From IMG/VR virus record IMGVR_UViG_3300045988_133686, positions 32,001-96,000 of that record: 64,000 bases of DNA; one strand, 5' to 3'. The notes under the pieces were generated by a model that was not told the origin of the DNA, ran no database searches, and saw nothing but the letters and a program-made list of their open reading frames with translations. The stretch comes from a virus. Both the position numbers and the translations under genes were made by a program. Below are positions 3,846-45,855 of the stretch, piece by piece (position 1 is the stretch's first letter; each line of letters opens with the position of its first letter).

Positions 3846-5270
3846 ATGGCAAAGCCAAAGGGTAAGGTTCGCGTATCTTTCCCCGGCAACGCCTCTCATG
3901 AGGTGACTGGTTCCATGACGTTGGTCGAAACGGACGGCATGAAGATTCTGATCGAGGCAGGGCTGGTGCAAGGGGGTTCGACACTACAAGATTGGCGGAC
4001 GAACTCCCGCCACTTCCCATTTCGCCCGAACACGATTGATTATATCTTTATAGGTCACGGACACGCCGATCACATGCTGCTGATTCCGAAACTTTATAAA
4101 GAGCATTGCACCGCGAAGATTATCGCGCCGCGCGGCACTAAGGCTCTATTCGATATTATGGCACACGACTCTGCCTATATCATCTCTAAGGACGCGCAAC
4201 AGCTTCAACAGGCGTTCGGCAAATACTTTGACCCGTTCTACACCGCGGATGATGTAGATACGGCCATGGAATATTTCGAGGAGTATGACTTCGACGAAAT
4301 GGTTGAACTGCCCGGCGGTTTGCGCTTCAAGTTTATTCCGTCCGGCCACATCATTAACGCCGCGCAGATTATGTTATGGGTACCGGCGCAGCAGCACTAC
4401 GTAAAAATCGGCTATACTTCCGATCTTGGTTCCACGCTCTTCCGCCGGTACATTAACCATTTCGAGCCGATTGACAACTGCGCGTTATTAATTGGCGAGT
4501 GTACATACGCGCGAGAAACACGACCGGTTACGCCGCGCGACCGCCGCAACGACATGCTAAAGATTAAGAGTATTATCGAAACAACATGTGTCGAGAATCA
4601 CAGCAGAGTGCTCATTCCGGTGTTCAGTCTTGATAGGGCGCAGAATATTGCGTCCTTTATTTATGACCTATTCAACGAAGATGAATCGTTTGACATCCCC
4701 GTCCTGGTCGATTCCCCGCTCACCGTGAAACTTTTCCGCTATATGCTTGAGCACGCCAATCCAGAGGATACAGCTTACCTTGAGAAGGTCATGGCATGGA
4801 AAAATCTGGTGCTCATAGAAGAGTCTGAGCAATCACGCCAATGGATGGAATCCAGCAAACCGTGCGTTATCCTATCCTCCGCCGGTATGTTGACCGCCGG
4901 GCGCAGCCGTCGCTGGGCAGCATCATTGCTCCCGCAGGCCAACGCCCACATTCTCTTCTGTGGGTTTGCCACGGAATCCTCGCTAGCCGGGCAGATCAGA
5001 CATGGTTCGGATCGCAAGTATATCTCTATTGAAGGAAAGCTGCGGCGCAATCGTTGCAGTATCACTGAGCTGCGATCATTCTCCGGCCATATGGGTCGCA
5101 ATGACTTAATCAATTATTACGCTGATGTTGATACGCCCCGCATCGCACTCGTTCACGGAGACGCTGACGCGAAGATTCAGTTTGCGGCAGACCTCGAAGC
5201 CGAGATGCAGAAGCGGAATAGAACGGGGCGCGCCATCTGCGTCAACAAAGGGACTCAAATTTTACTGTAA
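3846..5270 (+). CDS. metallo-beta-lactamase fold beta-CASP nuclease (RNase J/CPSF-like)
   Basis: HGHADH motif (IFIGHGHADHMLL), a mid-protein SGH (FIPSGHIINAAQ) and C-terminal LVHGD. 474 aa. Confidence 0.85.
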   Translation: MAKPKGKVRVSFPGNASHEVTGSMTLVETDGMKILIEAGLVQGGSTLQDWRTNSRHFPFRPNTIDYIFIGHGHADHMLLIPKLYKEHCTAKIIAPRGTKALFDIMAHDSAYIISKDAQQLQQAFGKYFDPFYTADDVDTAMEYFEEYDFDEMVELPGGLRFKFIPSGHIINAAQIMLWVPAQQHYVKIGYTSDLGSTLFRRYINHFEPIDNCALLIGECTYARETRPVTPRDRRNDMLKIKSIIETTCVENHSRVLIPVFSLDRAQNIASFIYDLFNEDESFDIPVLVDSPLTVKLFRYMLEHANPEDTAYLEKVMAWKNLVLIEESEQSRQWMESSKPCVILSSAGMLTAGRSRRWAASLLPQANAHILFCGFATESSLAGQIRHGSDRKYISIEGKLRRNRCSITELRSFSGHMGRNDLINYYADVDTPRIALVHGDADAKIQFAADLEAEMQKRNRTGRAICVNKGTQILL

Positions 5271-5756: not shown

Positions 5757-8700
5757 ATGGCCGATAATTTGGAGTTTGGGCTAAAAATCGTACCAGACTT
5801 TACAGAATTTGATAGTCAAATAGGAAAACATAAAAGTAAGGAAACAATTAAGGTTGGCATTGAGCCGGATACATCATCTATCGATACAGGAATACGCGCG
5901 TACAATAAAACAAGCAGGAATAACGCGTCGCAGTTACGTGTAGCAATTTCGCCCGTTGAGCCTGCTGACGGCCTACAGAAAGCTGTTGATACATTCTCCG
6001 GCAGGGTGTCACTGCGACTCCCGATCAAGCCTATTGTGTCAACGCTGCGCAGTGACCTGAATGCGGCGGTTGCGAAACTCTCTAGTAACGGTTCGTCGCC
6101 GATCGCTATTGAAGCGTCGATTAAGCCAATCCACATCAACAAAACGTTACAGGAAGCGGCAAAGGGGCAGCTATTCAAGCTCCCCGTCACTCTTGATATT
6201 AACCAGAGTACGCTTAACTCGCAGATACAGAGCATCCAATCCAAGATCGTGCAGGCGCTTGGTACAATTTCGGTTACGCCGCAGATCAATTTGAATGTAA
6301 AACAGAGCGGCGGGACGAGCAACAGCGGTGGCAACAACTCCGGCGGTCTGTCTTACGAGCAAACGCTTGACCAAGCGAAGATGCTCACACAGCTAGAGGA
6401 TTTCCAGCGAAAATATCAAAGTGTACTGCAAAGCGGTGGCACAAACACAGTTCTTGGTGATGAGCTTCAGTCTATCATTGACAAAGTTAATCAGATCAAC
6501 ACCGGTGATGGGCTAACTACCGCCAAGCGTGAAGTGGCGGAAATTGAAGCGCGTGTCAAGTCTCTAGCAAGTGCGTATAGGGACGCATCGAGCGCGGCGC
6601 AGTACATGATTAAGTCCTCCACAACCACGACGTCAGATGACTGGATGAGTCGCTGGGGTGAGATTAATCGGTATATACAAGGTTTAGACGCTCAAGCACA
6701 AAAGCTTCAGTCTGATTTCCAGACATTTTCTTTGCCACAGAAGTTTGTTGATGATCTAAAGCATCTAGCTTCTGCTGTCTCTGGTCGAGCCACGGCGGCT
6801 CTTGGTAAGGCGGATAAAAATGAGATAGCTGGCGTCAATGTTGACAACGTACACCGAGCTTATGCGCAGCTTCAACAGGTTATGCAGACACCGTTCGAAG
6901 CGCAGAATCAAGATTATGTTAAACAATACACTGCCGCGATTCAGGAGCTAGACTCTGCCGTTAAAATCCTCACCGGCGACCTATCTACCGTTAAGCCCAC
7001 CCTGGCCTCTGCGTCTGATGTCAGCAAGGCAAAGGCTGACTTCGAGTCACTGGGTAAGACATGGAGCAAGCTGTTCAGCAATAGCAGCCTATCTGCCCGG
7101 TATACGGACATTCTCGGTAAATTTGATACCGAGATGACACAAGCTCAGTTCAAGGCTCTGCAAGCGGACGTCGCTGCTTTCCGTTCGGAGGTTATTGCGG
7201 CTGGCGCGGCTACACAGTCATTTGGTGGTAAGCTCAAGTCTGCGCTCGGCCAGTTTGGATCGTTCTTGTCTGTCGCATCACTAGTTGGTTACGCTGTTAA
7301 AGGCATGAAGGACATGTACCAGGCGGCCGTTGAGCTTGACACTAAAGTGACAGACCTACAGATCGCATCCGGCAACGCTCGAAGCGAAGTGCGTGCTATG
7401 GTGAACGAGTACGCAGATATGGGTAGGGAGCTTGGTGCCACGGCGGTTGATGTTGCAACGGCTGCGGACACGTTTTTGAGACAAGGCGAAAACGAAGCTA
7501 ATACGGCAAAGCTTGTCAAAGACGCTTTGATGCTATCCAAGCTTGGTCAGATTGGCACCGATGAATCATCGACCGCGCTAACATCTGCCATGAAAGGTTA
7601 CAAGGTGAGCGCCGATCAAGCGGAATTAATCGTCGATAAGCTGACCGCCGTCGATATGGAAGCCGCCGCTAGCGCTGGTGGTATTGCGAAGGCCATGGCT
7701 GAGACGGCTACTAGTGCTGATATGGCTGGTATCAGCATGGACAGATTAATTGGTTATCTAACTACCATAAAAGAGATAACACAAAGTGGTGACGAAGAAA
7801 CCGGTAACTTCTTCAAATCTACCCTTGCTCGTATGTCCAATATTAAAGCCGGTTATCTTTCTGACCCAGAGACGGGAGAGGATCTGTCTAACGTAGAAGC
7901 CACATTGAGCGGCTTAGGAATCAAGCTGCGCAATTCTAACGCAGAGTTCCGCAATTTTGGCGATGTGCTTGATGAGGTGGCCGGAAAATGGGACACCTTC
8001 TCTAGTGTCCAGCAGCGCGCGATTGCTACGGCTCTTGGTGGAACTCGCGGTCAGGAAAAGCTGCTCGTTTTGATCGAGAATTATGATTCCGCCATGGAGT
8101 ATATGGATGTCGCAGCAAATAGCGCCGGTAACGCGGCTGAGAAATACAATGCTTATCTTGCTGGTATCGAGGCATCCTCTGACTCCTTCAAGGCATCCTT
8201 CCAAAAACTTTCCGCGGATGTAATGAATAGCGAGTTTGTGAAGGGTACATATGATGTCGGCACTGGTATTCTTGGATTCTTAGATGCACTCGTTCAAAAG
8301 ATCGGCGTGTTCTCCACCCTCGGCAGTGGTAGCGGAATTGCTTCGATCATTAAAAATCTGACTAAAAAGGGCGATCTTCTTTCAGTCATTGGTAATAGCG
8401 ACCTCTCCGGAGCCATCAGTGATGTTGGGCAACTCTCGCAGGCGTATATGCAACTGAACGGTAAACAACAGCGTGCGTATATGCTGTATAATATGATGAT
8501 GAAGGGCACCTCTGGACTAACCACGGCACAGCGTCAGAATCTCGCGGCGACGGTGCAATTGGTTAGGCAGGGCCAGACCTTTAATGTTACGATGGCGGAG
8601 GCAGCTCTAAAGCAAGAGGGTTTGAATGAGGCGCAAATTCAGGGACTTCAGCTTGCGATGCAGAACCAAGGTGGACTTAAAAGTACCACACTCGCGTATA

Positions 8701-11700
8701 GAGATCAAGCCATGGCTGTGATTGAGGCCACGCTGGCTGGCACCAATCTTGATGCTCAAAAAAAGAGAGAGATTGCCGACCTTATCATGAGCAAGGCTGC
8801 GATTGACAATGAGACGCGTAGCTTGCGCGCAAACGCAACCGCTCGTATCGCGATGATGGCTGCCGATCCAATGTCGTGGTTGTCATTGGCTCTGATGATT
8901 ATCCCGCAGATCGTTAAGGGTATTCAGTGGCTCGCGGGTGCTCAAGAAAGACAGCTTGAGACACAGAAGCAAAATGAGCAAGAGATGCAAAGTGCCTTCG
9001 ACACGTATGACCAGTCAAAGGATGCTGCGGAATCATATGCGGAACAGATTGACGAGCTTACTCAAAAAATACGCGAATTGCAGGCACTTGAGAGTAGCGG
9101 TAGGATTTCACTTGTTCAAAAGGATGAGCTTACTGAACTACGTGCAGAAAATGATGAACTACAACGTAAGCTTGACTTGCAACAAGCGCTTGCTAACCAG
9201 GATTACAAAGATGCCGAAAAGAGCTTTACTGATACACTGACTGCGGGGCATGATGCGTATATTGGAGAAAGCTTCGGCAATATGCAAGCCATAGATGTGG
9301 TTAGCAGCAGCGTTGAAGACCAGATCAAACAAGGAGTAAATTACAAATCGATCTTCAGCGGACTTCGACAAGCATACGACTTTTTCCAAGATGATCTCCA
9401 AAGATATAACGAGATGGCCGACGATGCAATGGCCGCAGGAAATGCAAAAGAAGCTGAACGTCTTAGACAGTTAGCTCAATATGACGAAGAATATCTGAAA
9501 AATATCGAGAGTAAGGCCGCTTCTATCGTTGCACAGTTCGACGACCAATATTGGGCTATATGGGATCATTACAGCGGAGATCTTTCTAAAATTGGTAATA
9601 CCAATCTTAGAGATATTATGTCGTGGCTAGGTGATGCGATCGACTGGGTTAGTAAGGACGCAACAGATCGCCGCGTGGAAGGTATTCTTAATGGCGACGC
9701 TTATAAAGATCAAGTTGACAAAATTAAGGAGCTTGCCAAAAGCGGTAAGCTGACCGCCGACGAGCTTAATAACGAAGACTTCGATGGATTCCGCAAGGCT
9801 TTATCCGATGTGGGTGTAGACATTGACTGGTTTATCGAAAACTATAATCGTCTGCTGACTCTTGATTCGCCAGATGATAATCCCAGTAATATTGTCAATC
9901 CGGTCGAGGCATACGTTGCAAAAAATAAATCTGACATTGGTGATGCGCTCTCTTCTGCTTTGAGCGAATACAGCAATGATGGTGTGGTCGCGAAAGACAC
10001 CCTCATGGCACTCGACAAGGCTATTCCTGGCGTCACGAATTTGCTGCTCGATCAAAACGGCGAGTGGACTGCCGCCGGTCAAGCTATCCTCGGTTATACC
10101 GACAACGTTAAAGGCGCGACAGCAGAGCTTTACCGTCTTCTTATCGCTCAGAAGCAACAAGAACTTGCGCAGCTAAATCCTCGCGACGAAAAATATAGGT
10201 ATAACGAAGAGCAGATTAAAAACGAGATTGATAGCTATCAAGCCGCGCTGGACAACCTCCGCGCGAACTGGCGCGACGAAATTACTACTGCCCTCTCCTC
10301 CATCAACTCCGACTCAGATATTCTCGCCCAGGCCATCAACGACTTGAACGACGGCACATTCGAGGAATGGGACAGCGAGTTCGTCGAGACGCTACTCGAC
10401 GCCTTCCCCGACCTTGCCGACGAGATCGAGGCTTTTGCCGACGGCACCATGGACGCCAAAGACCTCATTGAGGAAATGCAGGACGCGGCTGACGCATCTG
10501 CTTGGGATGACTTCCTCGAAGCTCTCGATGCTGTGAACTCTGCCGTTGAAGAATACGGTGAAGACAGCTATCAGGTTCAGGAAGCGCTAGAGAACCTTGA
10601 GTCTATCGTGCCGGGCGTCTCTGCTCTATTTTACACCGAAGACGGCGCTCTTACCGATGTCGGTCAGGCTGCTATTCTCGCGGCGGATGGACATATTGAT
10701 GCGGCTGAGGCTATGTTACAGTCCGCTTTGGTTGCTGCGCAACTCGATCTGAGTAATATCGTTAATGAGTGGAATGCAGTCACGCAGGCTGCGAATCAGG
10801 CTGCAATTGCTGGCATTAACGCTTCCTATTCACAGCAGTATAATAATGCTTCTAAAAAAGTAGCTGACATTAAGAAATTGCTCGACAACCTTGGCAAGAA
10901 GGGCCTTGGTGGCGGCGGTGGTTCCAGGCGAGGTGGCGGTGGCGGTGGTAGCAGCAAAAAGGATGTTCTGGAGGACTACAAGAATCAGAAGAAGATCCTT
11001 GAGCACCGCGCCGACATGTCTAAATCCGCGCAGGACTTAATGCGGGAAGACACCGACGAATGGCGTGTCGAACAGCAGAAGCAGTACGACATCTACCGCG
11101 AGTATGCTGCGATGATCCAGGCCGAGATGGAACGCTTGCGCAAGCTCGGTTATGATAGCGAGTCCGAAGAACTCATGCAACTTGAGAGTGATCTGGCAAA
11201 AGTCAAGAAGCAGATGTACTCCCTTCAGAAAGAGGCATGGAAGTCTCAGCAAGACGCGCAGATCAAAGCGCTCAAGAAGCAGAAGGACGCCGCCAAGGAG
11301 GCTTGGGAGGCCGAAAAGGAACGGCTCGAAGGCGAGATTGATCGCCAGGAAGCGCTCATCGGTTTGCTCGAAAAGCAATATGACCTGACAAATAACCTCC
11401 GCGACCAACGCACCGACCTTGCAAAACAGCTTGCATCCTCGAAGTCATACATTGGTCTATCCGAAGAAGAGCGCAAGTCTTTATTCTCCGATGAGGATTA
11501 CGCCCAGCTTATGGGTGTTCTTGATGACATCCAGCGCGAAGCAATCATTGCCTATAACGAGTACACCGAGCAGATTAAATCCGTCAACACGGACGAGGCA
11601 TATAAGCTGGACTACATCACCCAGCAGTACGAAGCTCAGTACGAGCTGATGAACAAAAAGTATGCCATCGCCGTGCAGGATCTCGCCGTGGCGCGCGCCC

Positions 11701-12638
11701 GCATCGCTCTGGAAAACGCCCAGCAGAACCGCAATATCGCCATGATCGTCAACGGCAAATGGACGTGGAGCGCTGATCCGCAAGCCATCCAGGACGCTGT
11801 TGAAAAGATATATGACGCCGAGCAGGAGCGTGCTGACGCGCAGAGCGACTATATCCAGCAGGAAAAGCTGAACGAAATGGAAGGCTTCAAGGCCAGTTTG
11901 GAACTGGAAAAAGAAGCCGCACAGAAGGCATACGAAGATTTTGTCGAGCATATCGACAAGCTCATAGAAGCGCTTGAAGAGATGGAGTTCGCGTTCGACG
12001 AAACCATTGAGAACCTGTATGACGTAGCTGGTAAGATCGAGAGCGCGGGCAGTGCCATCGCAAGTGCTGCGGCAAGTGCGGCGGCGGCTATCTCCTCTGC
12101 TGGTGGAGGCGGCGGAGGTGGCGGTGGCGGCGGTGGTGGAGGCGACAACGGATCACCGAAAACAAAGATTGTCAGCAAACCGCTGTCCAAGTACGAGAAG
12201 CCAGGAAGCAAATATGCCGAGATCAACATTATCATTGAAGAGGATAAGAACAGCGGTAAAAAGACCGGTAAGGTATATGGCGGTTCGGGCGGCGGTGGCA
12301 AGAACCTGAACATGTATTATGCCGATGGTGGCGTCAACACACAGACCGGCACCGCCATGATGCACGGCACCCCGCGTGCCCCGGAAGTCGTTTTTAACGC
12401 AGCCGACGCCGCGAAGCTCTATGACATCATCCACAACGGTAATCCCGTCGCCGCTATGGCGGATCAGATAAAGGCTCAGGTACATAACGCTGCTGCAAGC
12501 ATGGCAAACGCTGTGCCCGAAGCGCTCCAGCCTATCCAGTATATCATTAACGGCCTCAAGCTAGGCGACGAATCCGGCAACTTGACGCTGCGACAGTTCG
12601 CCACCCAGCTCTCCGCAGCCGCCCCGTTTTTGAAGTAA
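5757..12638 (+). CDS. tail tape measure protein (2293 aa)
   Basis: Core region typical of TP901-type tape measures (GRELGATAVDVATAADTFLRQG...TALTSAMKGY...AASAGGIAKAMAETATSADMAGIS). Long coiled-coil stretches and Gly tracts (G14 at 12102-12143). Confidence 0.95.
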   Translation: MADNLEFGLKIVPDFTEFDSQIGKHKSKETIKVGIEPDTSSIDTGIRAYNKTSRNNASQLRVAISPVEPADGLQKAVDTFSGRVSLRLPIKPIVSTLRSDLNAAVAKLSSNGSSPIAIEASIKPIHINKTLQEAAKGQLFKLPVTLDINQSTLNSQIQSIQSKIVQALGTISVTPQINLNVKQSGGTSNSGGNNSGGLSYEQTLDQAKMLTQLEDFQRKYQSVLQSGGTNTVLGDELQSIIDKVNQINTGDGLTTAKREVAEIEARVKSLASAYRDASSAAQYMIKSSTTTTSDDWMSRWGEINRYIQGLDAQAQKLQSDFQTFSLPQKFVDDLKHLASAVSGRATAALGKADKNEIAGVNVDNVHRAYAQLQQVMQTPFEAQNQDYVKQYTAAIQELDSAVKILTGDLSTVKPTLASASDVSKAKADFESLGKTWSKLFSNSSLSARYTDILGKFDTEMTQAQFKALQADVAAFRSEVIAAGAATQSFGGKLKSALGQFGSFLSVASLVGYAVKGMKDMYQAAVELDTKVTDLQIASGNARSEVRAMVNEYADMGRELGATAVDVATAADTFLRQGENEANTAKLVKDALMLSKLGQIGTDESSTALTSAMKGYKVSADQAELIVDKLTAVDMEAAASAGGIAKAMAETATSADMAGISMDRLIGYLTTIKEITQSGDEETGNFFKSTLARMSNIKAGYLSDPETGEDLSNVEATLSGLGIKLRNSNAEFRNFGDVLDEVAGKWDTFSSVQQRAIATALGGTRGQEKLLVLIENYDSAMEYMDVAANSAGNAAEKYNAYLAGIEASSDSFKASFQKLSADVMNSEFVKGTYDVGTGILGFLDALVQKIGVFSTLGSGSGIASIIKNLTKKGDLLSVIGNSDLSGAISDVGQLSQAYMQLNGKQQRAYMLYNMMMKGTSGLTTAQRQNLAATVQLVRQGQTFNVTMAEAALKQEGLNEAQIQGLQLAMQNQGGLKSTTLAYRDQAMAVIEATLAGTNLDAQKKREIADLIMSKAAIDNETRSLRANATARIAMMAADPMSWLSLALMIIPQIVKGIQWLAGAQERQLETQKQNEQEMQSAFDTYDQSKDAAESYAEQIDELTQKIRELQALESSGRISLVQKDELTELRAENDELQRKLDLQQALANQDYKDAEKSFTDTLTAGHDAYIGESFGNMQAIDVVSSSVEDQIKQGVNYKSIFSGLRQAYDFFQDDLQRYNEMADDAMAAGNAKEAERLRQLAQYDEEYLKNIESKAASIVAQFDDQYWAIWDHYSGDLSKIGNTNLRDIMSWLGDAIDWVSKDATDRRVEGILNGDAYKDQVDKIKELAKSGKLTADELNNEDFDGFRKALSDVGVDIDWFIENYNRLLTLDSPDDNPSNIVNPVEAYVAKNKSDIGDALSSALSEYSNDGVVAKDTLMALDKAIPGVTNLLLDQNGEWTAAGQAILGYTDNVKGATAELYRLLIAQKQQELAQLNPRDEKYRYNEEQIKNEIDSYQAALDNLRANWRDEITTALSSINSDSDILAQAINDLNDGTFEEWDSEFVETLLDAFPDLADEIEAFADGTMDAKDLIEEMQDAADASAWDDFLEALDAVNSAVEEYGEDSYQVQEALENLESIVPGVSALFYTEDGALTDVGQAAILAADGHIDAAEAMLQSALVAAQLDLSNIVNEWNAVTQAANQAAIAGINASYSQQYNNASKKVADIKKLLDNLGKKGLGGGGGSRRGGGGGGSSKKDVLEDYKNQKKILEHRADMSKSAQDLMREDTDEWRVEQQKQYDIYREYAAMIQAEMERLRKLGYDSESEELMQLESDLAKVKKQMYSLQKEAWKSQQDAQIKALKKQKDAAKEAWEAEKERLEGEIDRQEALIGLLEKQYDLTNNLRDQRTDLAKQLASSKSYIGLSEEERKSLFSDEDYAQLMGVLDDIQREAIIAYNEYTEQIKSVNTDEAYKLDYITQQYEAQYELMNKKYAIAVQDLAVARARIALENAQQNRNIAMIVNGKWTWSADPQAIQDAVEKIYDAEQERADAQSDYIQQEKLNEMEGFKASLELEKEAAQKAYEDFVEHIDKLIEALEEMEFAFDETIENLYDVAGKIESAGSAIASAAASAAAAISSAGGGGGGGGGGGGGGDNGSPKTKIVSKPLSKYEKPGSKYAEINIIIEEDKNSGKKTGKVYGGSGGGGKNLNMYYADGGVNTQTGTAMMHGTPRAPEVVFNAADAAKLYDIIHNGNPVAAMADQIKAQVHNAAASMANAVPEALQPIQYIINGLKLGDESGNLTLRQFATQLSAAAPFLK

Positions 12639-12647
12639 AGGAGTTTT

Positions 12648-12953
12648 ATGACAAACGATTTGCAGACCATCATCAACGCTCTGAAGAAGCCCATCTCAGA
12701 GCTAATAAAAGAGCGTACCAAGAACATGGTACGCCGCGAATCTGCCGTCGTCATTTCTGTGGACAATGCCCGCCGCACCGCAACAGTGCGGCTGGGCACA
12801 TCCCCTGAGCGTGATGACCAGAATATGCTGTTGCCAAATGCTACTGGTTCTGACCTGGAAGTTGGAGAAACCGTGTGGGTAGACATGTGGGGCAGCCCAT
12901 CTTTTAATGCTGTGATCTCTATGCGTAACGTATTTGACGAAACCATCAGGTGA
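12648..12953 (+). CDS. hypothetical tail-module protein
   Basis: RBS aaggag plus 4 nt (tttt) before the ATG. 101 aa. The 3' end overlaps the convergent minus-strand gene by 8 nt. Confidence 0.6.
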   Translation: MTNDLQTIINALKKPISELIKERTKNMVRRESAVVISVDNARRTATVRLGTSPERDDQNMLLPNATGSDLEVGETVWVDMWGSPSFNAVISMRNVFDETIR

Positions 12954-13941
12954 CTCTGTGCAATACAACGGGTGTGTCTCCTCCGGTAATACCAATAGGC
13001 ATAGGTGCAACCCAGCGCAATACGAGTTTACGCTCACTCGGCTCTGACTTTGAACCCGTCCAGAAATAATGCCAGTGCCCGCGCCGCATATGCGGGCGAG
13101 GCGAGGCGTGAGTGCCCGGCTTCTTCTCTTGATGATTTACGGGCTGAGTAGACGTCATAGCGCGGATGGCGTCGCCAATGCGTACCCCGACGTCCCACTT
13201 CCGTATCTCAACATACCTGTCTTTAATTACTCTACTGTTCGTAGTTGTTGACTGTTGCTCTGGGTTTGGTTGGACATCGGCGTTATTCGCGCACACATAC
13301 AACACAAGCTGTAAAACGTCTTGCAGTAATTGATACGTGATATTTACATATCCGTGCGAGTGCAATGCGTGTCGCAGTTCGACTTTACGAGCTTGCGCCT
13401 TAGTCATCTCAATGCTATGTGAAATGTTTTGTGCGTCGATATGCAACATATATGTGCCGACTTCTCCGTCATTTCTTACAAACACTAAGCGCAATTCCCT
13501 ATCACCATTTTTTACATCGTCTTCCAGGTGGACAAACACTCCATGTGCTTCAGTGATTGTGGCAAATTGAATATAGAAACACATATACGGCAGATGGAGT
13601 AGCACTTCGCTCGGTATCTCTGTATCGTCCTGTTCGAGAAGCAGATTCTCTGTGTCTTCGTCCATAACAAAAACTTCTTTGTCGTGACGCCACGGGGCTA
13701 GGGCGGCCATGGCACAGGCATCATCAACGGCTTGGCTTCTGTCACTAAAGTTGTACATTTGTGTGATTGCCAGTGTACCGCCTATCGGTATATAACACCA
13801 TGGTTCCCACACGGGATAACTACTACTCACATCGTCGTGTATTCTAAGCTTTTCAACCAATTCCCAACAATTGGGGTATCGAGCTGTTATCTTTTTCAAG
13901 AGTAACAACGGCGCATACATCTGATCTACATTATTTTTCAT
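12946..13941 (-). CDS. opposite-strand moron; AcrVA2-like protein (tentative)
   Basis: Strong RBS GGGAGGGGG and its own -10 element. 331 aa. The C-terminal RPHMRRGHWHYFWTG...LVLRWVAP and internal LHLPYMCFYIQF / LQLVLYVCANNADV resemble my recollection of the AcrVA2 family. Not verified by search. Confidence 0.5.
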   Translation of the reverse strand: MKNNVDQMYAPLLLLKKITARYPNCWELVEKLRIHDDVSSSYPVWEPWCYIPIGGTLAITQMYNFSDRSQAVDDACAMAALAPWRHDKEVFVMDEDTENLLLEQDDTEIPSEVLLHLPYMCFYIQFATITEAHGVFVHLEDDVKNGDRELRLVFVRNDGEVGTYMLHIDAQNISHSIEMTKAQARKVELRHALHSHGYVNITYQLLQDVLQLVLYVCANNADVQPNPEQQSTTTNSRVIKDRYVEIRKWDVGVRIGDAIRAMTSTQPVNHQEKKPGTHASPRPHMRRGHWHYFWTGSKSEPSERKLVLRWVAPMPIGITGGDTPVVLHRVT

Positions 13942-13965
13942 TTAATACCCCCTCCCGCTGAGAAT

Positions 13966-13973
13966 ATTATACA
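13966..13973 (-). promoter_or_regulatory. -10 element TGTATAAT for the opposite-strand moron
   Basis: Reverse complement of 13966-13973 is TGTATAAT, about 25 nt upstream of ATG 13941. Confidence 0.45.
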
Positions 13974-13998
13974 CGCTAACTGTTTTTATCGCAATACC

Positions 13999-16278
13999 TT
14001 GGAGGTGAGCATCATCCTATATCGTCCCTCATATATGCTTCCGTCCAGCGTGGCAGGCGGATCTGGCGGAATCATAGATGCTACGCAAGAATCCACGTTT
14101 GTGGCGCAACTCAATGCTTCTTCGTGGATCGACGCTTACCAAGTTATTATCCGCCGCAACACCGCGCTGAATGAAATAGTATACAACACCGGAGTTAAGT
14201 TGCTTGACGAACGTTTTTACCCAACTGATCCGGCGGGCAACTATGTGCCATTAACTATCCCTATTCCCTCCTCTGTCGCGCCCCTGCAATACGAGTCCGT
14301 CAACATCGGTGACGCGAACAAGACGGTGTGGGTGCGATTTAATATGCCCATAGCCAAACAAACAACCGGCGACATCAAAGCGGGCGTTAGCTTGTCTACT
14401 GATGGCGGCGCTACGTGGACTGGCACGGCAGGCAATCCTGTGACGGCAGCCGTCATCAAAGACGACGAACTCAAGATCACGTTCACCTCTGCGGTAGCTG
14501 GCAAGGAGAACGTCGTGAAGATTGCGGCGGGCACGATCAAACCGCTGAACGGGTACTTTCAATCGTCGAGCGAAGATATTGTTACCGGCAAATTTACTGG
14601 GTTTTTAGAAGAATCGCTCGTATCACTCAATCCGTCTACCGGCACCATCGCAGCCGGTAGCTCAATGACCGCAACTGTAACCGGCAATAAGCCGACCTAT
14701 GCAGTCAGCCGCAACGCTGCAATCTCTATCAAAAAAGCCGAATCAACGGACGAACTCGCGTCTCGTACACAGGCAGATAACCGCATCTCGTATACCATTT
14801 TAGACAAGTCGATTTATTTCTATGTCGGCGGGAGCATCACGGCTGGTCAGTATGTTTTTAGCTATACGGATAACGCGCTGACCGGAACGACGAAAACTGT
14901 CACCGCGACCGTGAATGTCATTGCCCGCAATGGCATTACCTGCACCGCATACGCATTGGATGATACGGCCAGCGTCGTGTCTTTAACTATGAATAAAGAG
15001 ACGCAGAACGCTAAGAGCACGCTTGCCGAGCTTGCGTCCGCCATCCAACTTTCAACGGACGGAGGCGTGACATGGACTGGTACGACCGCAAATCCTATTG
15101 TTGCGGTAGGTTTTACGAATGAGGCGCAGAAATACACCAAAGCCGCTGTCTACAACATGCGCATCGAGTTCACCTCTCCACTCACTGGTTCCAGCAATAT
15201 TATTAAGATCCCAGCCGACTCCATTAAGTCTGGCGATGTGAAAAATACGGAGATTTTATCCGCGACCCTCGTTGTGCCGGAAGCAACAGCCCCTGCGGCG
15301 TCTTCCAGTGATACGCAGGACACGTCCTCGCCTGTAACAAACCATATGGTGAACGGTTACGCAAACGGATATAAGTGGACGCTCAAGATTTGGAATGGAT
15401 ACGATGCTGGCGACCCGGATGCTCAGGCCATCGAGTCGTTTGAGTCGTGCTTCGATTGCAAGGACACCCCTACGGTTAGTATTACAGGGCCATCTGTTGT
15501 GGCGGCACGCTCCGCACAATGGACTGGGGTATACAGCCACGGCAAGGACATTCCATTAATGTGGAACCGATGGCAACTCCTCATCGCGGGAGATGTTGTG
15601 CGCGACACGGGTATGCAGTACGGCAATAGCGCGTTGGCATACTCTTATGACGGACTGATCGCGGGCACAAATTACGTGCTGAAGCTCACCTGCGCCACGC
15701 AGGACGGTGTTGAGGTCAGCACATCGTTGCCGTTCTCGGTGAACTACACAACGCTGGATTCGAACGGTATCGTCAAGGCGACACCGCAACGCGATGGTTC
15801 CGTTTACGTGCAGTGCCGCAACATGAAGTATATCACAGGCGTGCCCAGCAGCGACGGCTTCTCATATCTGGCGAACACCCCTGTTACCGATCACAATAGT
15901 GTGAGCACGGAGGGCGGGGCGAGCATTAGCTTTGTCAGCACAGAGGATGCCGACATGGATTTTGCGGACGGCGACACATTGATGGTGCGCTTGCATTCCA
16001 AGTACGATGGCACCCTATTGTCTTTCGAGGCGGATGACGGCTCCCTATCCTTTACTCTGACGCACCGAGGGCTGGTGGACGGCTTGCTGCCGAACACTGA
16101 CTTATATCCGGCGACCGACCTATACCCCGACCCGACAAAGTTTGGTGAATTCGTCTATACCGTAAACGGCAAAGAGATCGCCATCATTCCAACCCCGAAC
16201 TACGGTTATAACTGGTATACGCTTTATTTAACCACAACAAGCATAACCGCATATGCGCACACTGGAGGTGCGACCTAA
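13999..16278 (+). CDS. tail/baseplate-associated protein with duplicated Ig-like domain
   Basis: Internal repeat: SLSTDGGATWTGTAGNPVTAAV...ITFTSAVAGKENVVKIAAGTIK vs QLSTDGGVTWTGTTANPIVAV...IEFTSPLTGSSNIIKIPADSIK. Start is uncertain (TTG 13999 or ATG 14035). Confidence 0.65.
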   Translation: MEVSIILYRPSYMLPSSVAGGSGGIIDATQESTFVAQLNASSWIDAYQVIIRRNTALNEIVYNTGVKLLDERFYPTDPAGNYVPLTIPIPSSVAPLQYESVNIGDANKTVWVRFNMPIAKQTTGDIKAGVSLSTDGGATWTGTAGNPVTAAVIKDDELKITFTSAVAGKENVVKIAAGTIKPLNGYFQSSSEDIVTGKFTGFLEESLVSLNPSTGTIAAGSSMTATVTGNKPTYAVSRNAAISIKKAESTDELASRTQADNRISYTILDKSIYFYVGGSITAGQYVFSYTDNALTGTTKTVTATVNVIARNGITCTAYALDDTASVVSLTMNKETQNAKSTLAELASAIQLSTDGGVTWTGTTANPIVAVGFTNEAQKYTKAAVYNMRIEFTSPLTGSSNIIKIPADSIKSGDVKNTEILSATLVVPEATAPAASSSDTQDTSSPVTNHMVNGYANGYKWTLKIWNGYDAGDPDAQAIESFESCFDCKDTPTVSITGPSVVAARSAQWTGVYSHGKDIPLMWNRWQLLIAGDVVRDTGMQYGNSALAYSYDGLIAGTNYVLKLTCATQDGVEVSTSLPFSVNYTTLDSNGIVKATPQRDGSVYVQCRNMKYITGVPSSDGFSYLANTPVTDHNSVSTEGGASISFVSTEDADMDFADGDTLMVRLHSKYDGTLLSFEADDGSLSFTLTHRGLVDGLLPNTDLYPATDLYPDPTKFGEFVYTVNGKEIAIIPTPNYGYNWYTLYLTTTSITAYAHTGGAT

Positions 16279-33604: not shown

Positions 33605-33641
33605 AAAAAAAAAGAAGGGGCGCTTATTGCGCCCCTTCTTT
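33605..33641. terminator. bidirectional hairpin terminator (stronger for the integrase strand)
   Basis: A9 run, stem GAAGGGGCGC/GCGCCCCTTC (33614-33623/33629-33638), then TTTAC. The minus-strand reading gives the stem plus T9. It overlaps the integrase stop. Confidence 0.7.
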
Positions 33642-34775
33642 ACGATTATCAAGTTGTTGTGATACGCCCGCCACACTAGTTGACTGCACATTCGTTAGGA
33701 GGTGTGTGTAAATACGTCCGGTGATGTCCGGCGAACTATGACCGAGAGCCTTGCTGGTATCAAAAAGGGTCACTCCGCTCTGATTCGCAAGCGACGCAAA
33801 TGTGTGCCGCAATCCGTGCAGCGTAATATGCGGAAGATTGTATTTGCTCACAATCTGCTGAAGCTTTGCAGATAGATAATTGGGGCGTCTTGGTCTTCCG
33901 TCATCGTGCTGTATAACGTACCCGCCGTTGTGGTATTGCGCTCCATAAATGCCCTTCCACTCTTCCTGGCGTTGTCTTTCTCCAAGCAAAACTTCCCGCA
34001 GCGTGCTAGGCATCTGAAGCTTTCTATACGACGAGCTAGTTTTAGTCTCCTTTTCTATAATGGTACTACCGGCTGACGTGCGCGCGTCACATATTAAGAT
34101 GGTATTGTTTGTGAAGTCTATCGAACTCCATCTCAGGCCAGATATTTCTTCGCGGCGTAGCCCTAAATACCCTGCAATAAAAACAACTGGCTCCATCCAC
34201 GTGCCCTTAACCGCTCTGAAAAGCGTTTGCAACTGTTCGGCTGTATAGATGTCTGGTTCGCTCACAATTTTTTTAGGTGGCATCGTCTCCTTCACATAAT
34301 TGCGGTAAGCATACTTCATCATCACCGCGTAGTCAAATATAGAACTAAGCAGGTTGTAGTGCTTAATAACCGTATTAGGACTAAGCTTCTCCAACGCCCG
34401 CGCATAGTATTGTTGGATGTCCCGCGCCTTGATGTCTTGTATAGGGAGCTTCCCAATTTTATCTTTGAGCAGATGATTGCGCACGATCTGTTCATATCCA
34501 TAATAAGTCGTGTGCGCTATCTTTGGTTGGGCCACTGTTTTTAGCCACTCCTGAATTACATCTCCTAGAGTAATCCTACGCGGCGACAAAGTATCCCCGT
34601 GATCCTTATTAGCGTCAAATTCACGCTTGGCCGCTCTAGCCTCCTTTAACGTTGAGTAGGTTTTGTACTTGCGGATAAATTTCCCGTTACCGTCTCGACC
34701 GTATGTAAATGCAACATAATACAGTTTTCGGTCGATGTCATACGAGATTCCTTCGGCAATTTTTTCTCTAGCCAT
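33624..34775 (-). CDS. int: tyrosine site-specific integrase
   Basis: RBS aaggaggt. C-terminal HGLRHTFASL...LGHSSPDITGRIYTH catalytic motifs. 383 aa. Confidence 0.95.
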   Translation of the reverse strand: MAREKIAEGISYDIDRKLYYVAFTYGRDGNGKFIRKYKTYSTLKEARAAKREFDANKDHGDTLSPRRITLGDVIQEWLKTVAQPKIAHTTYYGYEQIVRNHLLKDKIGKLPIQDIKARDIQQYYARALEKLSPNTVIKHYNLLSSIFDYAVMMKYAYRNYVKETMPPKKIVSEPDIYTAEQLQTLFRAVKGTWMEPVVFIAGYLGLRREEISGLRWSSIDFTNNTILICDARTSAGSTIIEKETKTSSSYRKLQMPSTLREVLLGERQRQEEWKGIYGAQYHNGGYVIQHDDGRPRRPNYLSAKLQQIVSKYNLPHITLHGLRHTFASLANQSGVTLFDTSKALGHSSPDITGRIYTHLLTNVQSTSVAGVSQQLDNRKEGAQ

Positions 34776-40694: not shown

Positions 40695-41121
40695 TTTTGT
40701 ACTCCTTTCTGAACACGTTTCCGTGTCCTCTAGCCTTGAAAAAATAATAATCCGCGGGCAACGTGCGACCTACGCCGATATAGCCTTGCTTTTCCAACTC
40801 CCACCGCCGCACAACATCTCGCGTAATATCCATCAGCTCGTCCGTCACTGGATAGCGTGCCTTGTAACCATGGAACTGAGAATAAATGACGACCTCCCCG
40901 ATTGTGTCAGGGAAGTCGTCAGAATCCAGCCGGTTCAAGATACACCACACAACGGCGGCCTTCTCAGCGATTGGCACGTCCTCGGCTCGGCATTCGCCAT
41001 AGAGAGTGCGGGCGATGCGGTGCATATCACTTTCGCTGATAGCATCCGCGGCGAGTGTTGTTACAGGCATAAAGGTAAGAGCCGCAATCAAAAGCCACAC
41101 GGCGCAGTGTTTAATTCGCAT
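40621..41121 (-). CDS. secreted SleB-type cell wall hydrolase
   Basis: Signal-peptide-like MRIKHCAVWLLIAALTFMPVTTLAADA. TLYGECRAE...AAVVWCILNRLDS...VIYSQFHGY pattern. The 3' end overlaps the HD gene start by 74 nt. Confidence 0.72.
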   Translation of the reverse strand: MRIKHCAVWLLIAALTFMPVTTLAADAISESDMHRIARTLYGECRAEDVPIAEKAAVVWCILNRLDSDDFPDTIGEVVIYSQFHGYKARYPVTDELMDITRDVVRRWELEKQGYIGVGRTLPADYYFFKARGHGNVFRKEYKSDGEWDWSLPDPYEFGFIDAERAE

Positions 41122-41917
41122 TGTTGTCTGCTCCTGTATTATAACATGATTCGATACGTTTGCGGGCAGCCTCGTAAAAGTCTTTGTCCTTTTCAAAAGC
41201 TATAAATTCGCGTCCGGTATTAATGGCTGCTACGCAGGTCGTACCGCTGCCAGCGCATGGGTCAAGCACAAGATCATCCTCGTCCGTGTAAGTGCGCACT
41301 AGATACTCGCACAACTCGACAGGTTTCTGTGTTGGATGCAACAAGCCTTTATTGATATTTGGATAATCAAGCACCTGCCGAGGATACCCGGCGTACTCAA
41401 TCACCCTGTCCAGTTTATGGCTAGGACGGGTCGGGTTTACCCCCTTCCCATCTCCGTACCTTTGCGGGCGGCTCCATTCTTGATCCACGCGCACCAGACC
41501 TTGTGGCCGGTACTTCATATTGACCTTTGCGCCGTTTGCCGTCGAGGCCGGACTGAATACCGCAATCTCTTCAATATCTTTTAGAGGCTTGAGTTTCGCG
41601 TTTGTGTGCCCCGATGGTCTACTCTTACGCCAGTACCACATGTATTTGAACCATTCCTTGTTGCTCTGCACAAGATCAGATGTGAATGGCTGCTGGCAAA
41701 ACATGACGATGGCGCCGTCGGGTTTAATAATGCGGCGCAGGTGCGCCCATAATTCATCCAGAGGCAGAGCTTTGTCCCATTTGCATGTCGTGGTGTTATA
41801 TGGTGGGTCAGCCAGCACTAATTGCACCGACTGATCTGTCACGTCCGCTAGGCCGTGCAGACAATCATCACAGAGTAACAAAGTCATCACCGTACTTATC
41901 AATAAAGGCGAGGTCAA
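41111..41917 (-). CDS. DNA methyltransferase (DPPY motif; N6-adenine or N4-cytosine)
   Basis: LVLADPPYN (motif IV) precedes VLDPCAGSGTT (motif I). Start is uncertain (TTG 41917 or ATG 41887). Confidence 0.85.
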   Translation of the reverse strand: MTSPLLISTVMTLLLCDDCLHGLADVTDQSVQLVLADPPYNTTTCKWDKALPLDELWAHLRRIIKPDGAIVMFCQQPFTSDLVQSNKEWFKYMWYWRKSRPSGHTNAKLKPLKDIEEIAVFSPASTANGAKVNMKYRPQGLVRVDQEWSRPQRYGDGKGVNPTRPSHKLDRVIEYAGYPRQVLDYPNINKGLLHPTQKPVELCEYLVRTYTDEDDLVLDPCAGSGTTCVAAINTGREFIAFEKDKDFYEAARKRIESCYNTGADNNAN

Positions 41918-42302
41918 ACTTAACCTTGAACCTCCGAATGGCGCGTTTCATTGCCACGTCAATGCCAACCTGCTTGTCAAACTCGTCTTCGGGACTGCAC
42001 GATGCTTCCCCGCGGATGCCATTCCACAGTTCGACTTGGGTGACGTGCCCATTGTTACGAGTGCGATATTCGCCGAAGTCGTTGTAGTCAGTTTCCCAAG
42101 CAGACCATACGCGGCGAGGGGCGGGCTGAAGCTGCTCCTCAAACAAGGCGTGAAATTCATTAGACGATACGATGCCAGTTCCCTGATGGTTCGTAAATGT
42201 AATGGTGCCATCACTATCAACATGGGTCACTGTAAATACAGTACCTCTTTTCAGGCCGGGGACATCCTTAATGAGTGCAATTTTCGATCCGGTCATAATC
42301 AT
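41868..42302 (-). CDS. hypothetical protein
   Basis: ATGA overlap with the upstream stop at 42299-42302. 144 aa. Confidence 0.6.
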   Translation of the reverse strand: MIMTGSKIALIKDVPGLKRGTVFTVTHVDSDGTITFTNHQGTGIVSSNEFHALFEEQLQPAPRRVWSAWETDYNDFGEYRTRNNGHVTQVELWNGIRGEASCSPEDEFDKQVGIDVAMKRAIRRFKVKFDLAFIDKYGDDFVTL

Positions 42303-43393
42303 GCGATTTTCTCCTCCATGTTCTGATTCCATTTTTCAACTATTGCGGCTTGTTGTGCTGTGAGCGGCGCGTTATAAGTTTGCAATGCCTGCACAATATG
42401 GTTATTACGAATTTCGAGCGTTACTAAAGATTTGTCCGGTTCGTCCGCTCTGCGCATAAACATAACATGACAGTTGCCGTCAATGACACGCTGAATATAT
42501 GACACGACGCAATTATGTTGCTGAGCGGCTTCGTCTTTGATGTCGGCGGTGCTCTGCGGATAAATAAAGATGTAATCACCGATGCGGCATTCGTACTCCG
42601 GTCGGCACTGTTTCTGAAACGCAGCTTCATCGAATTGCGTTCTTGCCCGCTCATAGTTACGCCGCATGATGTCGTGCGTGGTCACTAGGCAGCGTGGGTA
42701 GCGATCGAACTTGACGCTCACTCTCTTTGCCATATTTATGTAGTCAATATAGTGTTGAGCTGCCGACGAAGCAGTTTGTGCCTCAAACGTACAAATGCGG
42801 TCGATATAGGTAATATAATCCAGCGCACGCAGAGTGCCATCTTTAATAAATGCCCAAATGCCAGTGTTCCACCTCCAACTGGCGCCTTGGAAGACTGCTT
42901 CTATTTTTCTGTCATAGTTCGACAACTCGTCACCAATAGGGTGATAAGAAAGTATGGTTTGCATAGCATCAGGATCTTCTTTATATGCTGCCAGCAGCTT
43001 ACCAGTTAGCGTTAAACCGTGACGTGCATGTCGAAGTAACGGCTTGGGAATATCAGTAATTTGAACACTGAAATGGGGATCAAACTTTGTGATACCAGCC
43101 GCAAAATATTGCTCATGCAGTTTGTCTTTGGCCGCAATTCTTAGCACTGTGCTGAGCTTTTTCGTGTTGTGTTCGCATTTATGCGTCCAAATCCACCGAA
43201 GGTAGTCGGCGTAGCGCTGATCCTCAAACGTGCCGAAGACTTGCGGCGCGTACCATCCATCAAGCTGGCTGTCAAGTGACGTGACGGACTTGCCGCGCAG
43301 TCCAATACACTGTTGCTCTGCCAAGTCGTACTTCACAACGCGGCCATCATCTCGCCAGAATTCAAGCATTCGACCATTCTTGACTACCCTCAC
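42299..43393 (-). CDS. hypothetical protein, possibly PcfJ-like
   Basis: 364 aa. The C-terminal AAQQHNCVVSYIQRVIDGNCHVMFMRR...LVTLEI resembles what I recall of the PcfJ-like domain. Weak call. Confidence 0.45.
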   Translation of the reverse strand: MRVVKNGRMLEFWRDDGRVVKYDLAEQQCIGLRGKSVTSLDSQLDGWYAPQVFGTFEDQRYADYLRWIWTHKCEHNTKKLSTVLRIAAKDKLHEQYFAAGITKFDPHFSVQITDIPKPLLRHARHGLTLTGKLLAAYKEDPDAMQTILSYHPIGDELSNYDRKIEAVFQGASWRWNTGIWAFIKDGTLRALDYITYIDRICTFEAQTASSAAQHYIDYINMAKRVSVKFDRYPRCLVTTHDIMRRNYERARTQFDEAAFQKQCRPEYECRIGDYIFIYPQSTADIKDEAAQQHNCVVSYIQRVIDGNCHVMFMRRADEPDKSLVTLEIRNNHIVQALQTYNAPLTAQQAAIVEKWNQNMEEKIA

Positions 43394-45477: not shown

Positions 45478-45553
45478 TGGAGCTGGGTAGGAGACTTGAA
45501 CTCCTAGTCTACGGAGTACAAAACCGTGGCTTTACCAATTAAGCTAACCCAGC
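45478..45553 (-). tRNA. tRNA, anticodon UGU (Thr) by manual folding; CCA encoded
   Basis: Cloverleaf: GCTGGGT/ACCCAGC acceptor, GCTT/AAGC D-stem, anticodon loop TTTGTAC, AGGAG-TTCAAGT-CTCCT T-arm. 31:39 is a U-U mismatch. Confidence 0.75.
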
Positions 45554-45554
45554 G

Positions 45555-45628
45555 TGGAGCCTCCAGAAGGAATCGAACCCTCACTGACTGATTACGAAAC
45601 AGCCATTCTACCGTTAAATTATGGAGGC
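45555..45628 (-). tRNA. tRNA, anticodon CGU (Thr) by manual folding; CCA encoded
   Basis: GCCTCCA/TGGAGGC acceptor, anticodon loop TTCGTAA, GAGGG-TTCGATT-CCTTC T-arm. 31:39 is a U-U mismatch. Confidence 0.7.
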
Positions 45629-45701
45629 ACAACCCAGCGTCCGAAGAACATCGTTGCGCACCGACGAGTTTCTCATAAAGAGCATAACTCACTGGGTCTA
45701 C

Positions 45702-45778
45702 TGGTGGACTCTCTGGGACTTGAACCCAGGCGCGACCGCTTATGAGGCGGGTACTCTAACCAACTGAGCTAAGAGTCC
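45702..45778 (-). tRNA. tRNA, anticodon CAU (Met, or Ile2 if lysidine-modified); CCA encoded
   Basis: GGACTCT/AGAGTCC acceptor, GCTCAGTTGGTTAGAGT D-arm, anticodon loop CTCATAA, CTGGG-TTCAAGT-CCCAG T-arm. Confidence 0.8.
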
Positions 45779-45781
45779 ATG

Positions 45782-45855
45782 TGGCAGAGGTGGCCGGGAT
45801 CGAACCGACATTAACAGGGTCAAAGTCTGTTGTCCTGCCGTTGAACGACACCTCT
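45782..45855 (-). tRNA. tRNA, anticodon UUG (Gln) by manual folding; CCA encoded
   Basis: AGAGGTG/CACCTCT acceptor, anticodon loop CTTTGAC, GTCGG-TTCGATC-CCGGC T-arm. 31:39 is an A-C mismatch. Confidence 0.7.

Follow-up and report, generated by a model that had tools for sequence, protein, structure and literature searches.

AcrVA2, an anti-CRISPR protein of Moraxella bovoculi prophages, binds the N-terminal peptide of Cas12a, which leads to a translation-dependent loss of the cas12a mRNA (Marino et al., preprint 10.1101/2022.11.29.518452). The protein inhibits Cas12a orthologs of only 35% identity via a short conserved LSKT motif and, as laid out in the discussion of the same preprint, this block of biogenesis acts on newly made proteins, while existing protein is not inactivated. 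AcrVA2 homologs share the C-terminal domain and are divergent at the N-terminus; they typically occur without Cas12a, and the authors proposed other targets for the family. FinQ, the second described system of this kind, lowers or terminates the transcripts of the F tra operon (10.1101/2022.11.29.518452). Here, we describe an AcrVA2-like/FinQ-family gene on the minus strand (12946..13941) of a 64,000-nt stretch of viral DNA, positions 32,001 to 96,000 of IMG/VR record IMGVR_UViG_3300045988_133686; this whole stretch is called the window in the following. The coding sequence (CDS), which was assigned from the open reading frame (ORF) and its translation, starts with ATG and encodes a protein of 331 amino acids (aa).

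An initial annotation of the window had proposed that this gene is a self-promoted moron in the tail module whose product resembles AcrVA2. In our view the locus is probably best explained as an intact AcrVA2/FinQ member, carried on a reversed moron of approximately 1.04 kb and expressed from the prophage, which depletes the mRNA of one target. The gene is a new member of a large, already described and Pfam-curated family and represents no new kind of system or mechanism. Likewise, the term anti-CRISPR is the name of the family and not an activity that can be attributed to the 331-aa protein.

Family membership of the 331-aa protein

Compared with phmmer, the 331-aa protein matches AcrVA2 (PDB 7CI1/7CI2) with an E-value of 2.9e-9 in two colinear stretches, and a profile built from 42 homologs finds 7CI1 as its sole PDB match at E 7e-16. 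In precomputed annotations the Pfam family PF26125 ('AcrVA2-like') is assigned to P0001, a 99%-identical protein, as well as to all 120 homologs listed. The PHROGs family phrog_6160, whose function is given as unknown, matches the protein over its full length at E 1e-44. Local Pfam and NCBIfam scans were empty for both the 331-aa protein and P0001; since the Pfam copy used here contains no PF26125 model, this result is not counter-evidence to family membership. A PADLOC scan gave no match, and a scan of viral contigs with the single 331-aa protein returned nothing. Searched with tblastn against plasmids, the protein matches finQ with 27% identity over residues 84-327 (E 9e-13), such matches being located on over 500 enterobacterial plasmids, most of which are conjugative. 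By these comparisons the 331-aa protein is about equally close to FinQ and AcrVA2. The family itself is large: the profile reaches about 5,100 clusters (50% identity) with a cutoff of E <= 1e-3, and still 1,415 when the cutoff is set to E <= 1e-30.

The predicted fold leads to the same assignment. An AlphaFold2 model built on the homolog alignment begins with a helical N-terminal part, followed by a central beta/alpha part. A linker modelled with low confidence (approximately residues 224-279) leads to a small beta domain at the C-terminus, which bears the residues P283-H284-M-R286-R-G-H289-W-H291. When this model was searched with Foldseek, only the three AcrVA2 chains (7CI1/7CI2) were significant, with 7CI2_A at E 1.8e-9, a probability of 1.00 and template modelling (TM) scores of 0.49/0.51, while the next match had an E-value of 0.29. 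Identity in the structural alignment to AcrVA2 amounts to about 14-15%.

Functional residues of AcrVA2 provide an additional criterion. AcrVA2 function is weakened by the exchanges W79A and D89A, and the variants H286A, R288A and H291A still bind Cas12a but no longer down-regulate its mRNA (10.1101/2022.11.29.518452). These five residues align to W84, D94, H284, R286 and H289 of the 331-aa protein, the PDB numbering of AcrVA2 being offset by one in the alignment. Within the 42-sequence alignment W84, H284, R286 and H289 are invariant and D94 is nearly so, and all five are retained in homologs from Moraxella, Escherichia, Pantoea, Thauera and Clostridia. H284, R286 and H289 lie in the sequence RPHMRRGHWH, so that the C-terminal H-x-R-x-x-H motif is present. 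The blocks LPxxCxYI, LYxCAxNAxI and RPH[IM]RRGHWH are colinear family-wide and, together with the block W-R...D, are shared with AcrVA2, which at about 322 aa is also similar in length. The segments from which the resemblance had originally been recognised, LHLPYMCFYIQF and LQLVLYVCANNADV in the interior and THASPRPHMRRGHWHYFWTGSKSEPSERKLVLRWVAPMPIG at the C-terminus, are all contained in the translation, and the AcrVA2 motif given in the initial annotation (RPHIRRGHWHGYWQG...RVRWQP) agrees with the sequence in the PDB. Together, sequence, profile, predicted fold and the five tested residues make membership of the 331-aa protein in the AcrVA2-like/FinQ family (PF26125) solid, and the colinear resemblance proposed at the outset is borne out by each of these comparisons.

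Conservation is unevenly distributed along the protein. Compared with the Moraxella homologs, the C-terminal part reaches 39% identity and the middle 19-20%, but residues 1-100 are only 12-13% identical. Members of the gut-Clostridia phage clade to which the protein belongs are 40-50% identical to each other, with a well conserved N-terminal part. The strongly diverged N-terminal part of the 331-aa protein is consistent with a target that may differ from Cas12a.

Predicted expression signals of the gene

A ribosome-binding site (RBS), GGGAGGGGG, can be read directly at 13948..13956 (-), 6 nt 5' of the ATG. Further upstream a sigma-70-type promoter match is predicted at 13966..13994 (-), composed of the -35 hexamer TTGCGA (13994-13989), a 17-nt spacer and the -10 hexamer TATAAT (13971-13966). 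The RBS and the -10 element had been noted before, the latter within TGTATAAT (13973-13966), and are found as described; the -35 hexamer is added here. In a consensus scan the promoter match agrees with the consensus at 10 of 12 positions, and it is located inside the 57-bp divergent spacer between the 331-aa gene and the next tail gene. An extended -10 element (TGnTATAAT) was considered and rejected, as the TG abuts the hexamer and is hence one base out of place.

On the opposite side, the gene converges on a plus-strand gene of 101 aa (12648..12953), which follows the tape-measure gene in the late operon. The overlap of the two genes, previously put at 8 nt, is exactly that (12946-12953). 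A terminator scan places a candidate terminator of the minus-strand transcript at 12702..12735 (-), approximately 210 nt beyond the stop codon of the 331-aa gene and antisense within the 101-aa gene. It consists of a hairpin with a 9-bp stem, for which folding gives -17.1 kcal/mol (z = -2.0), followed by CTTTTATT.

The gene is monocistronic, as no co-oriented neighbour is found among the ORFs of the window or the gene calls of L001, a 99%-identical contig, and no paralog of the 331-aa protein is encoded in the window. A putative translationally coupled downstream ORF (12476-12946, minus strand), whose ATG overlaps the stop codon as TGATG, was rejected: it runs antisense to the end of the tape-measure gene and to the conserved 101-aa gene, its sequence is of low complexity (S/R-rich), and the frame is not open in the related phage L002 (IMGVR_UViG_3300014203_000054).

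Insertion between two tail genes

The 331-aa gene had been described as the only minus-strand gene of the tail block. All further ORFs on the minus strand of this block (5.7-30 kb of the window) are nested in longer plus-strand ORFs, and independent gene calls on L001, compared over a 21-kb stretch, agree, with nine genes on the tail side and six on the tape-measure side all encoded on the strand opposite to the gene. Its right neighbour (13999..16278, plus strand) encodes a tail-module protein of 747-759 aa, for which the independent gene call on L001 (747 aa) takes the ATG at 14035 as the start. The same two flanking genes are found in L002, whose tail module is colinear. The 101-aa protein, for which domain and family searches gave no family match, shows 78% aa identity to its homolog in L002 (100% to that in L001), and the large tail protein shows 58%. 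In L002 the two genes are just 36 bp apart and no AcrVA2-like gene is present.

Relative to L002, the window thus contains an additional segment of about 1.04 kb at 12954..13997, as delimited by ORF map, tblastn and junction alignment, which comprises the gene with its promoter match and RBS. Homology between the window and L002 resumes at the RBS of the gene for the large tail protein; the additional DNA therefore corresponds exactly to the 331-aa gene plus its 57-bp upstream region. The G+C content of the insert is 46.8% compared to 50-53% in the flanks and its G+C content at third codon positions is 48.5% compared to 54-61%, which is a modest difference. Because the related phage possesses the empty site, we read the gene and its promoter as an accessory insertion, i.e. 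a moron, placed in reverse between two tail genes; the moron architecture suggested initially is thereby supported. The left stem arm and the T-run of the candidate terminator are not present in the homologous gene of the insert-free L002, even though the encoded protein is conserved. This single comparison hints that the terminator may have evolved together with the insert. In the insert itself the terminator scan detected no plus-strand terminator-like site, so late transcription could read through it.

At the empty site of L002 (L002:7932-7967), the two tail genes are separated by a hairpin rich in G+C, GGCGGGGC-ATC-GCCCCGCC, with AAATTTT after it; this structure may represent an operon-internal attenuator or an RNA-stabilising element.

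Classical phage morons such as bor/lom of phage lambda and the morons of HK97 were reportedly described by Juhala and colleagues in 2000. Like these, the locus consists of a single gene between two late-operon genes, with its own promoter match, a possible terminator, a lower G+C content and absence from a relative. Unlike them, the 331-aa gene faces against the operon, overlaps its convergent neighbour by 8 nt and has its candidate terminator inside the neighbouring CDS.

Alternatively, the 331-aa protein could be a tail component, structural or assembly-related, whose gene happens to lie on the opposite strand. The sole support for such a role is the position of the gene, which has the tape-measure region on one side and the distal tail genes on the other. 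The gene is missing at the same junction of the otherwise colinear L002, neither PHROGs, Pfam nor PDB yields a structural-protein match, and homologs are found on plasmids and at non-structural positions. We therefore regard a tail component as hardly credible and this reading as effectively refuted. The two outcomes that the initial annotation had named as fatal to its proposal, a lack of profile or structural similarity to AcrVA2 and homology to a tail component, were both looked for and neither was found.

Genomic placement of homologs

Homologs of the 331-aa protein occupy diverse positions. L005, from a similar large phage, has its homolog (47% identity) in reverse orientation within the tail-fibre module, preceded by the promoter match TTGACG-17-TATAAT. 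In L006 it is placed at the end of an Oscillospiraceae prophage, after the holin gene, and is followed by a small gene with a faint match to the helix-turn-helix (HTH) family HTH_3; in L008 it adjoins the integrase gene and in L010 it belongs to the early region of a phage. Lactobacillus phage JCL1032 carries its homolog between the lysis genes and attP, with annotated terminators on both sides and a small downstream gene, ORF33. Promoter matches comparable to that of the window are found just upstream of the homologs in L005, L010 and JCL1032.

A reversed placement in the tail module was considered as a habit of the family and was rejected, since in a crude survey of neighbour strands both neighbours lie on the opposite strand in only 2 of 31 genome loci; L005 and L026 resemble the arrangement described here. 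Being lone and reversed is accordingly one among several ways in which this mobile accessory gene is placed. In L026 the homolog is also reversed, beside an ORF of 759 aa.

Several diverged AcrVA2-like genes can occur in one genome, as observed in Lachnospiraceae bacterium A4 (L026, L027, L050) and, with two such genes, in Agathobaculum butyriciproducens DSM 100391 (L022, L024). AcrVA2-like genes are additionally present in Leptospira LE1-like phages (phage-plasmids), including one from L. inadai. Leptospira inadai is among the species that possess a Cas12a (Cpf1) ortholog, and this phage lineage might be a true anti-Cas12a case.

Proposed function and target

Transcription of the 331-aa gene from its own sigma-70-type promoter, which is called here from consensus matches, would proceed independently of the late operon and would provide expression from the prophage. 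If the protein functions like its described relatives, it would recognise a single specific partner, probably in the form of a nascent chain, through the diverged N-terminal and central parts, and the conserved C-terminal HxRRGHWH element would then cause the loss of the mRNA of that partner during its translation. Candidate targets are another defence protein of the host or a protein of a rival mobile element. Expression in the lysogen is suggested by the gene's own promoter and its reversed orientation in a temperate phage, and fits a mechanism which blocks the synthesis of new protein.

Two described systems can be directly compared with this proposal. Both AcrVA2 and the 331-aa protein are encoded in temperate phages; in contrast to AcrVA2, the gene described here has no neighbouring acrVA1, is reversed inside a tail module and belongs to a phage of a gut anaerobe. 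FinQ, found on IncI-type and F-like plasmids of Enterobacteriaceae, has the same C-terminal motif (loci L041/L047), while the N-terminal 80 residues of the 331-aa protein remain unaligned to it in tblastn. FinQ and AcrVA2 are alike in that each lowers the transcripts of a specific target. Unlike the phage-borne 331-aa gene, FinQ is plasmid-borne, resides in Gram-negative hosts and acts on the F tra operon.

One alternative is that the protein is a genuine type V-A anti-CRISPR, which recognises the nascent N-terminus of the host's Cas12a and removes the cas12a mRNA. It belongs to the same family as AcrVA2 and keeps every tested residue, and since AcrVA2 reads the short LSKT motif, a low identity between inhibitors need not alter specificity. 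Moreover, some gut Lachnospiraceae and related Bacillota encode Cas12a, a point that counts against a target other than Cas12a. Opposed to this, the N-terminal 100 residues are merely 12-13% identical to those of the Moraxella homologs, and the monocistronic gene has neither an AcrVA1-like gene nor an anti-CRISPR-associated (Aca) or HTH gene beside it, although the association of acr and aca genes is common rather than obligatory. In addition, homologs typically occur where Cas12a is absent (10.1101/2022.11.29.518452), and FinQ demonstrates that the family includes non-CRISPR targets. Taking the diverged recognition part, the lack of acrVA1 and aca neighbours and the occurrence of most homologs without Cas12a together, a target other than Cas12a is more likely than Cas12a, and we consider the anti-Cas12a role unlikely.

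Alternatively, the protein could be a FinQ-like weapon against rival elements, which is expressed from the prophage and, rather than countering a host defence, silences a transcript that a superinfecting phage or a conjugative element cannot do without. Its direct similarity to FinQ of conjugative plasmids, which reduces the F tra transcripts, speaks for such a role, as does the location of the gene in a temperate phage, with its own promoter match and outside of any early anti-defence cluster; furthermore, a block of biogenesis hits newly made proteins and would thus suit incoming elements. Some homologs are found in early phage regions (L010), which rather fits anti-defence use, and the proposal is a sub-case of the general explanation favoured here, with the same mechanism. 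We therefore rate this more specific proposal as rather doubtful.

Within the reading of the locus as a prophage-expressed AcrVA2/FinQ member, it seems to us an evenly balanced question whether the gut-Clostridia clade constitutes a further specificity class, that is, a prophage-expressed, nascent-chain-recognising mRNA silencer whose target is neither Cas12a nor F tra. Possible targets of such a clade include proteins encoded by competing phages and a different gut Bacillota defence system.

Along with the presence of Cas12a in some gut Bacillota, several further observations weigh against the explanation preferred here. In the structural model the mean predicted local distance difference test (pLDDT) score is 77 and the values are high for residues 10-220, but they drop below 50 at residues 232-279 and reach about 54-76 at residues 280-320, so that the linker and the C-terminal domain are weakly modelled. 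Promoter-like matches in the 3-kb region show no excess over shuffled sequences (two found, 3.8 expected), and the promoter call is based on the position in the 57-bp spacer and the analogy with the homologs, not on statistics. Terminator-like sites, which are consensus matches only, are likewise not in excess over shuffles in the region. The empty site stems from one lineage, and a deletion in L002 would look identical to an insertion in the window. Scans with the 747-aa tail protein, both alone and as an alignment, against viral and metagenome contigs yielded one other lineage (L002, identical with L063 and L065) and otherwise only L064 (OIZT01000039.1), a 97%-identical metagenome contig. 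Finally, the way in which AcrVA2 removes mRNA is itself unexplained, and the chief source on it is a preprint.

Allelic variation has to be considered in the same context. The copy in L064 (L064:2914-3908) carries a 1-nt deletion in an A6 run (nt 429-434 of the gene), which would truncate the protein after approximately 144 residues; otherwise it differs by about six synonymous and four nonsynonymous changes, as read by eye from the alignment. This frameshift could represent a loss-of-function or phase-variable allele or an assembly error. A second allele, P0002 (191 aa; five member sequences on ENA contigs of 1.3 kb or less), has lost residues 61-202 or thereabouts in frame, including W84, D94 and the central domain. 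In view of the frameshift and internal-deletion alleles the gene would be dispensable and sometimes lost, and could be decaying in some hosts, dispensability being what is expected for an accessory gene.

Taken further, the frameshift in the 109-kb contig copy and the occurrence of the P0002 deletion allele in other assemblies would suit a passenger gene without current function that is heading to decay. The copies in the window and in L001 are, on the other hand, full length with every conserved residue intact, the cluster comprises 63 member sequences, and both the RBS and the promoter match are preserved, which renders a mere passenger very unlikely. The L001 copy differs from that of the window at two synonymous and two nonsynonymous sites, corresponding to a ratio of nonsynonymous to synonymous polymorphism (pN/pS) of approximately 0.27 from tiny counts.

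With regard to significance, AcrVA2 is to our knowledge so far the only bacterial protein that recognises a polypeptide and then removes the specific mRNA encoding it. The locus described here is an intact, self-contained member of the family from a human-gut phage; its insertion is defined, and a matching relative shows the empty site. It hence represents a reasonable candidate for finding the targets of non-Cas12a AcrVA2 homologs, a question raised by the AcrVA2 authors.

The phage carrying the gene

The window belongs to a large temperate phage of about 109 kb, the length of the 97%-identical contig L064, and encodes a tyrosine integrase at 33624-34775. A search for near-identical DNA in a phage collection gave no match. 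The plus strand encodes a virion structural protein, a ClpP-type protease, the tape-measure protein, tail and fibre proteins and an endolysin. On the minus strand, genes are found for NrdD and its activase, a dUTPase, ThyX, an HD protein and a DNA methylase, as well as for the DNA polymerase III alpha subunit, a primase-helicase, a PD-(D/E)XK nuclease and an ERF recombinase. Metagenome-assembled genomes of human-gut Clostridiales, Oscillospiraceae and Faecalibacterium contain the closest homologs of the 331-aa protein. Together with the anaerobic nucleotide reductase, these taxa point to anaerobic gut Bacillota as hosts of the phage.

The tape-measure protein (5757-12638, plus strand) has a length of 2,293 aa and contains poly-glycine runs (e.g. 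G14), whereas its homolog in L002 is far shorter with 1,382 aa. Between the ClpP-type protease and the tape-measure region, the plus strand encodes a 474-aa metallo-beta-lactamase / beta-CASP / RMMBL protein with an RNase J/CPSF-like nuclease fold (3846-5270), which is conserved in L001. The presence of a protein with an RNA-nuclease fold and of an AcrVA2-like gene in one phage is a notable coincidence, but nothing ties the two together. An orphan N6/N4 DNA methyltransferase, possibly with an anti-restriction role, is located beside a PcfJ-like protein, the two genes lying at 41111-41917 and 42299-43393 on the minus strand. Four tRNA genes (Thr-TGT, Thr-CGT, Met-CAT and Gln-TTG) are encoded at 45478-45855 on the minus strand, within the replication-side module.

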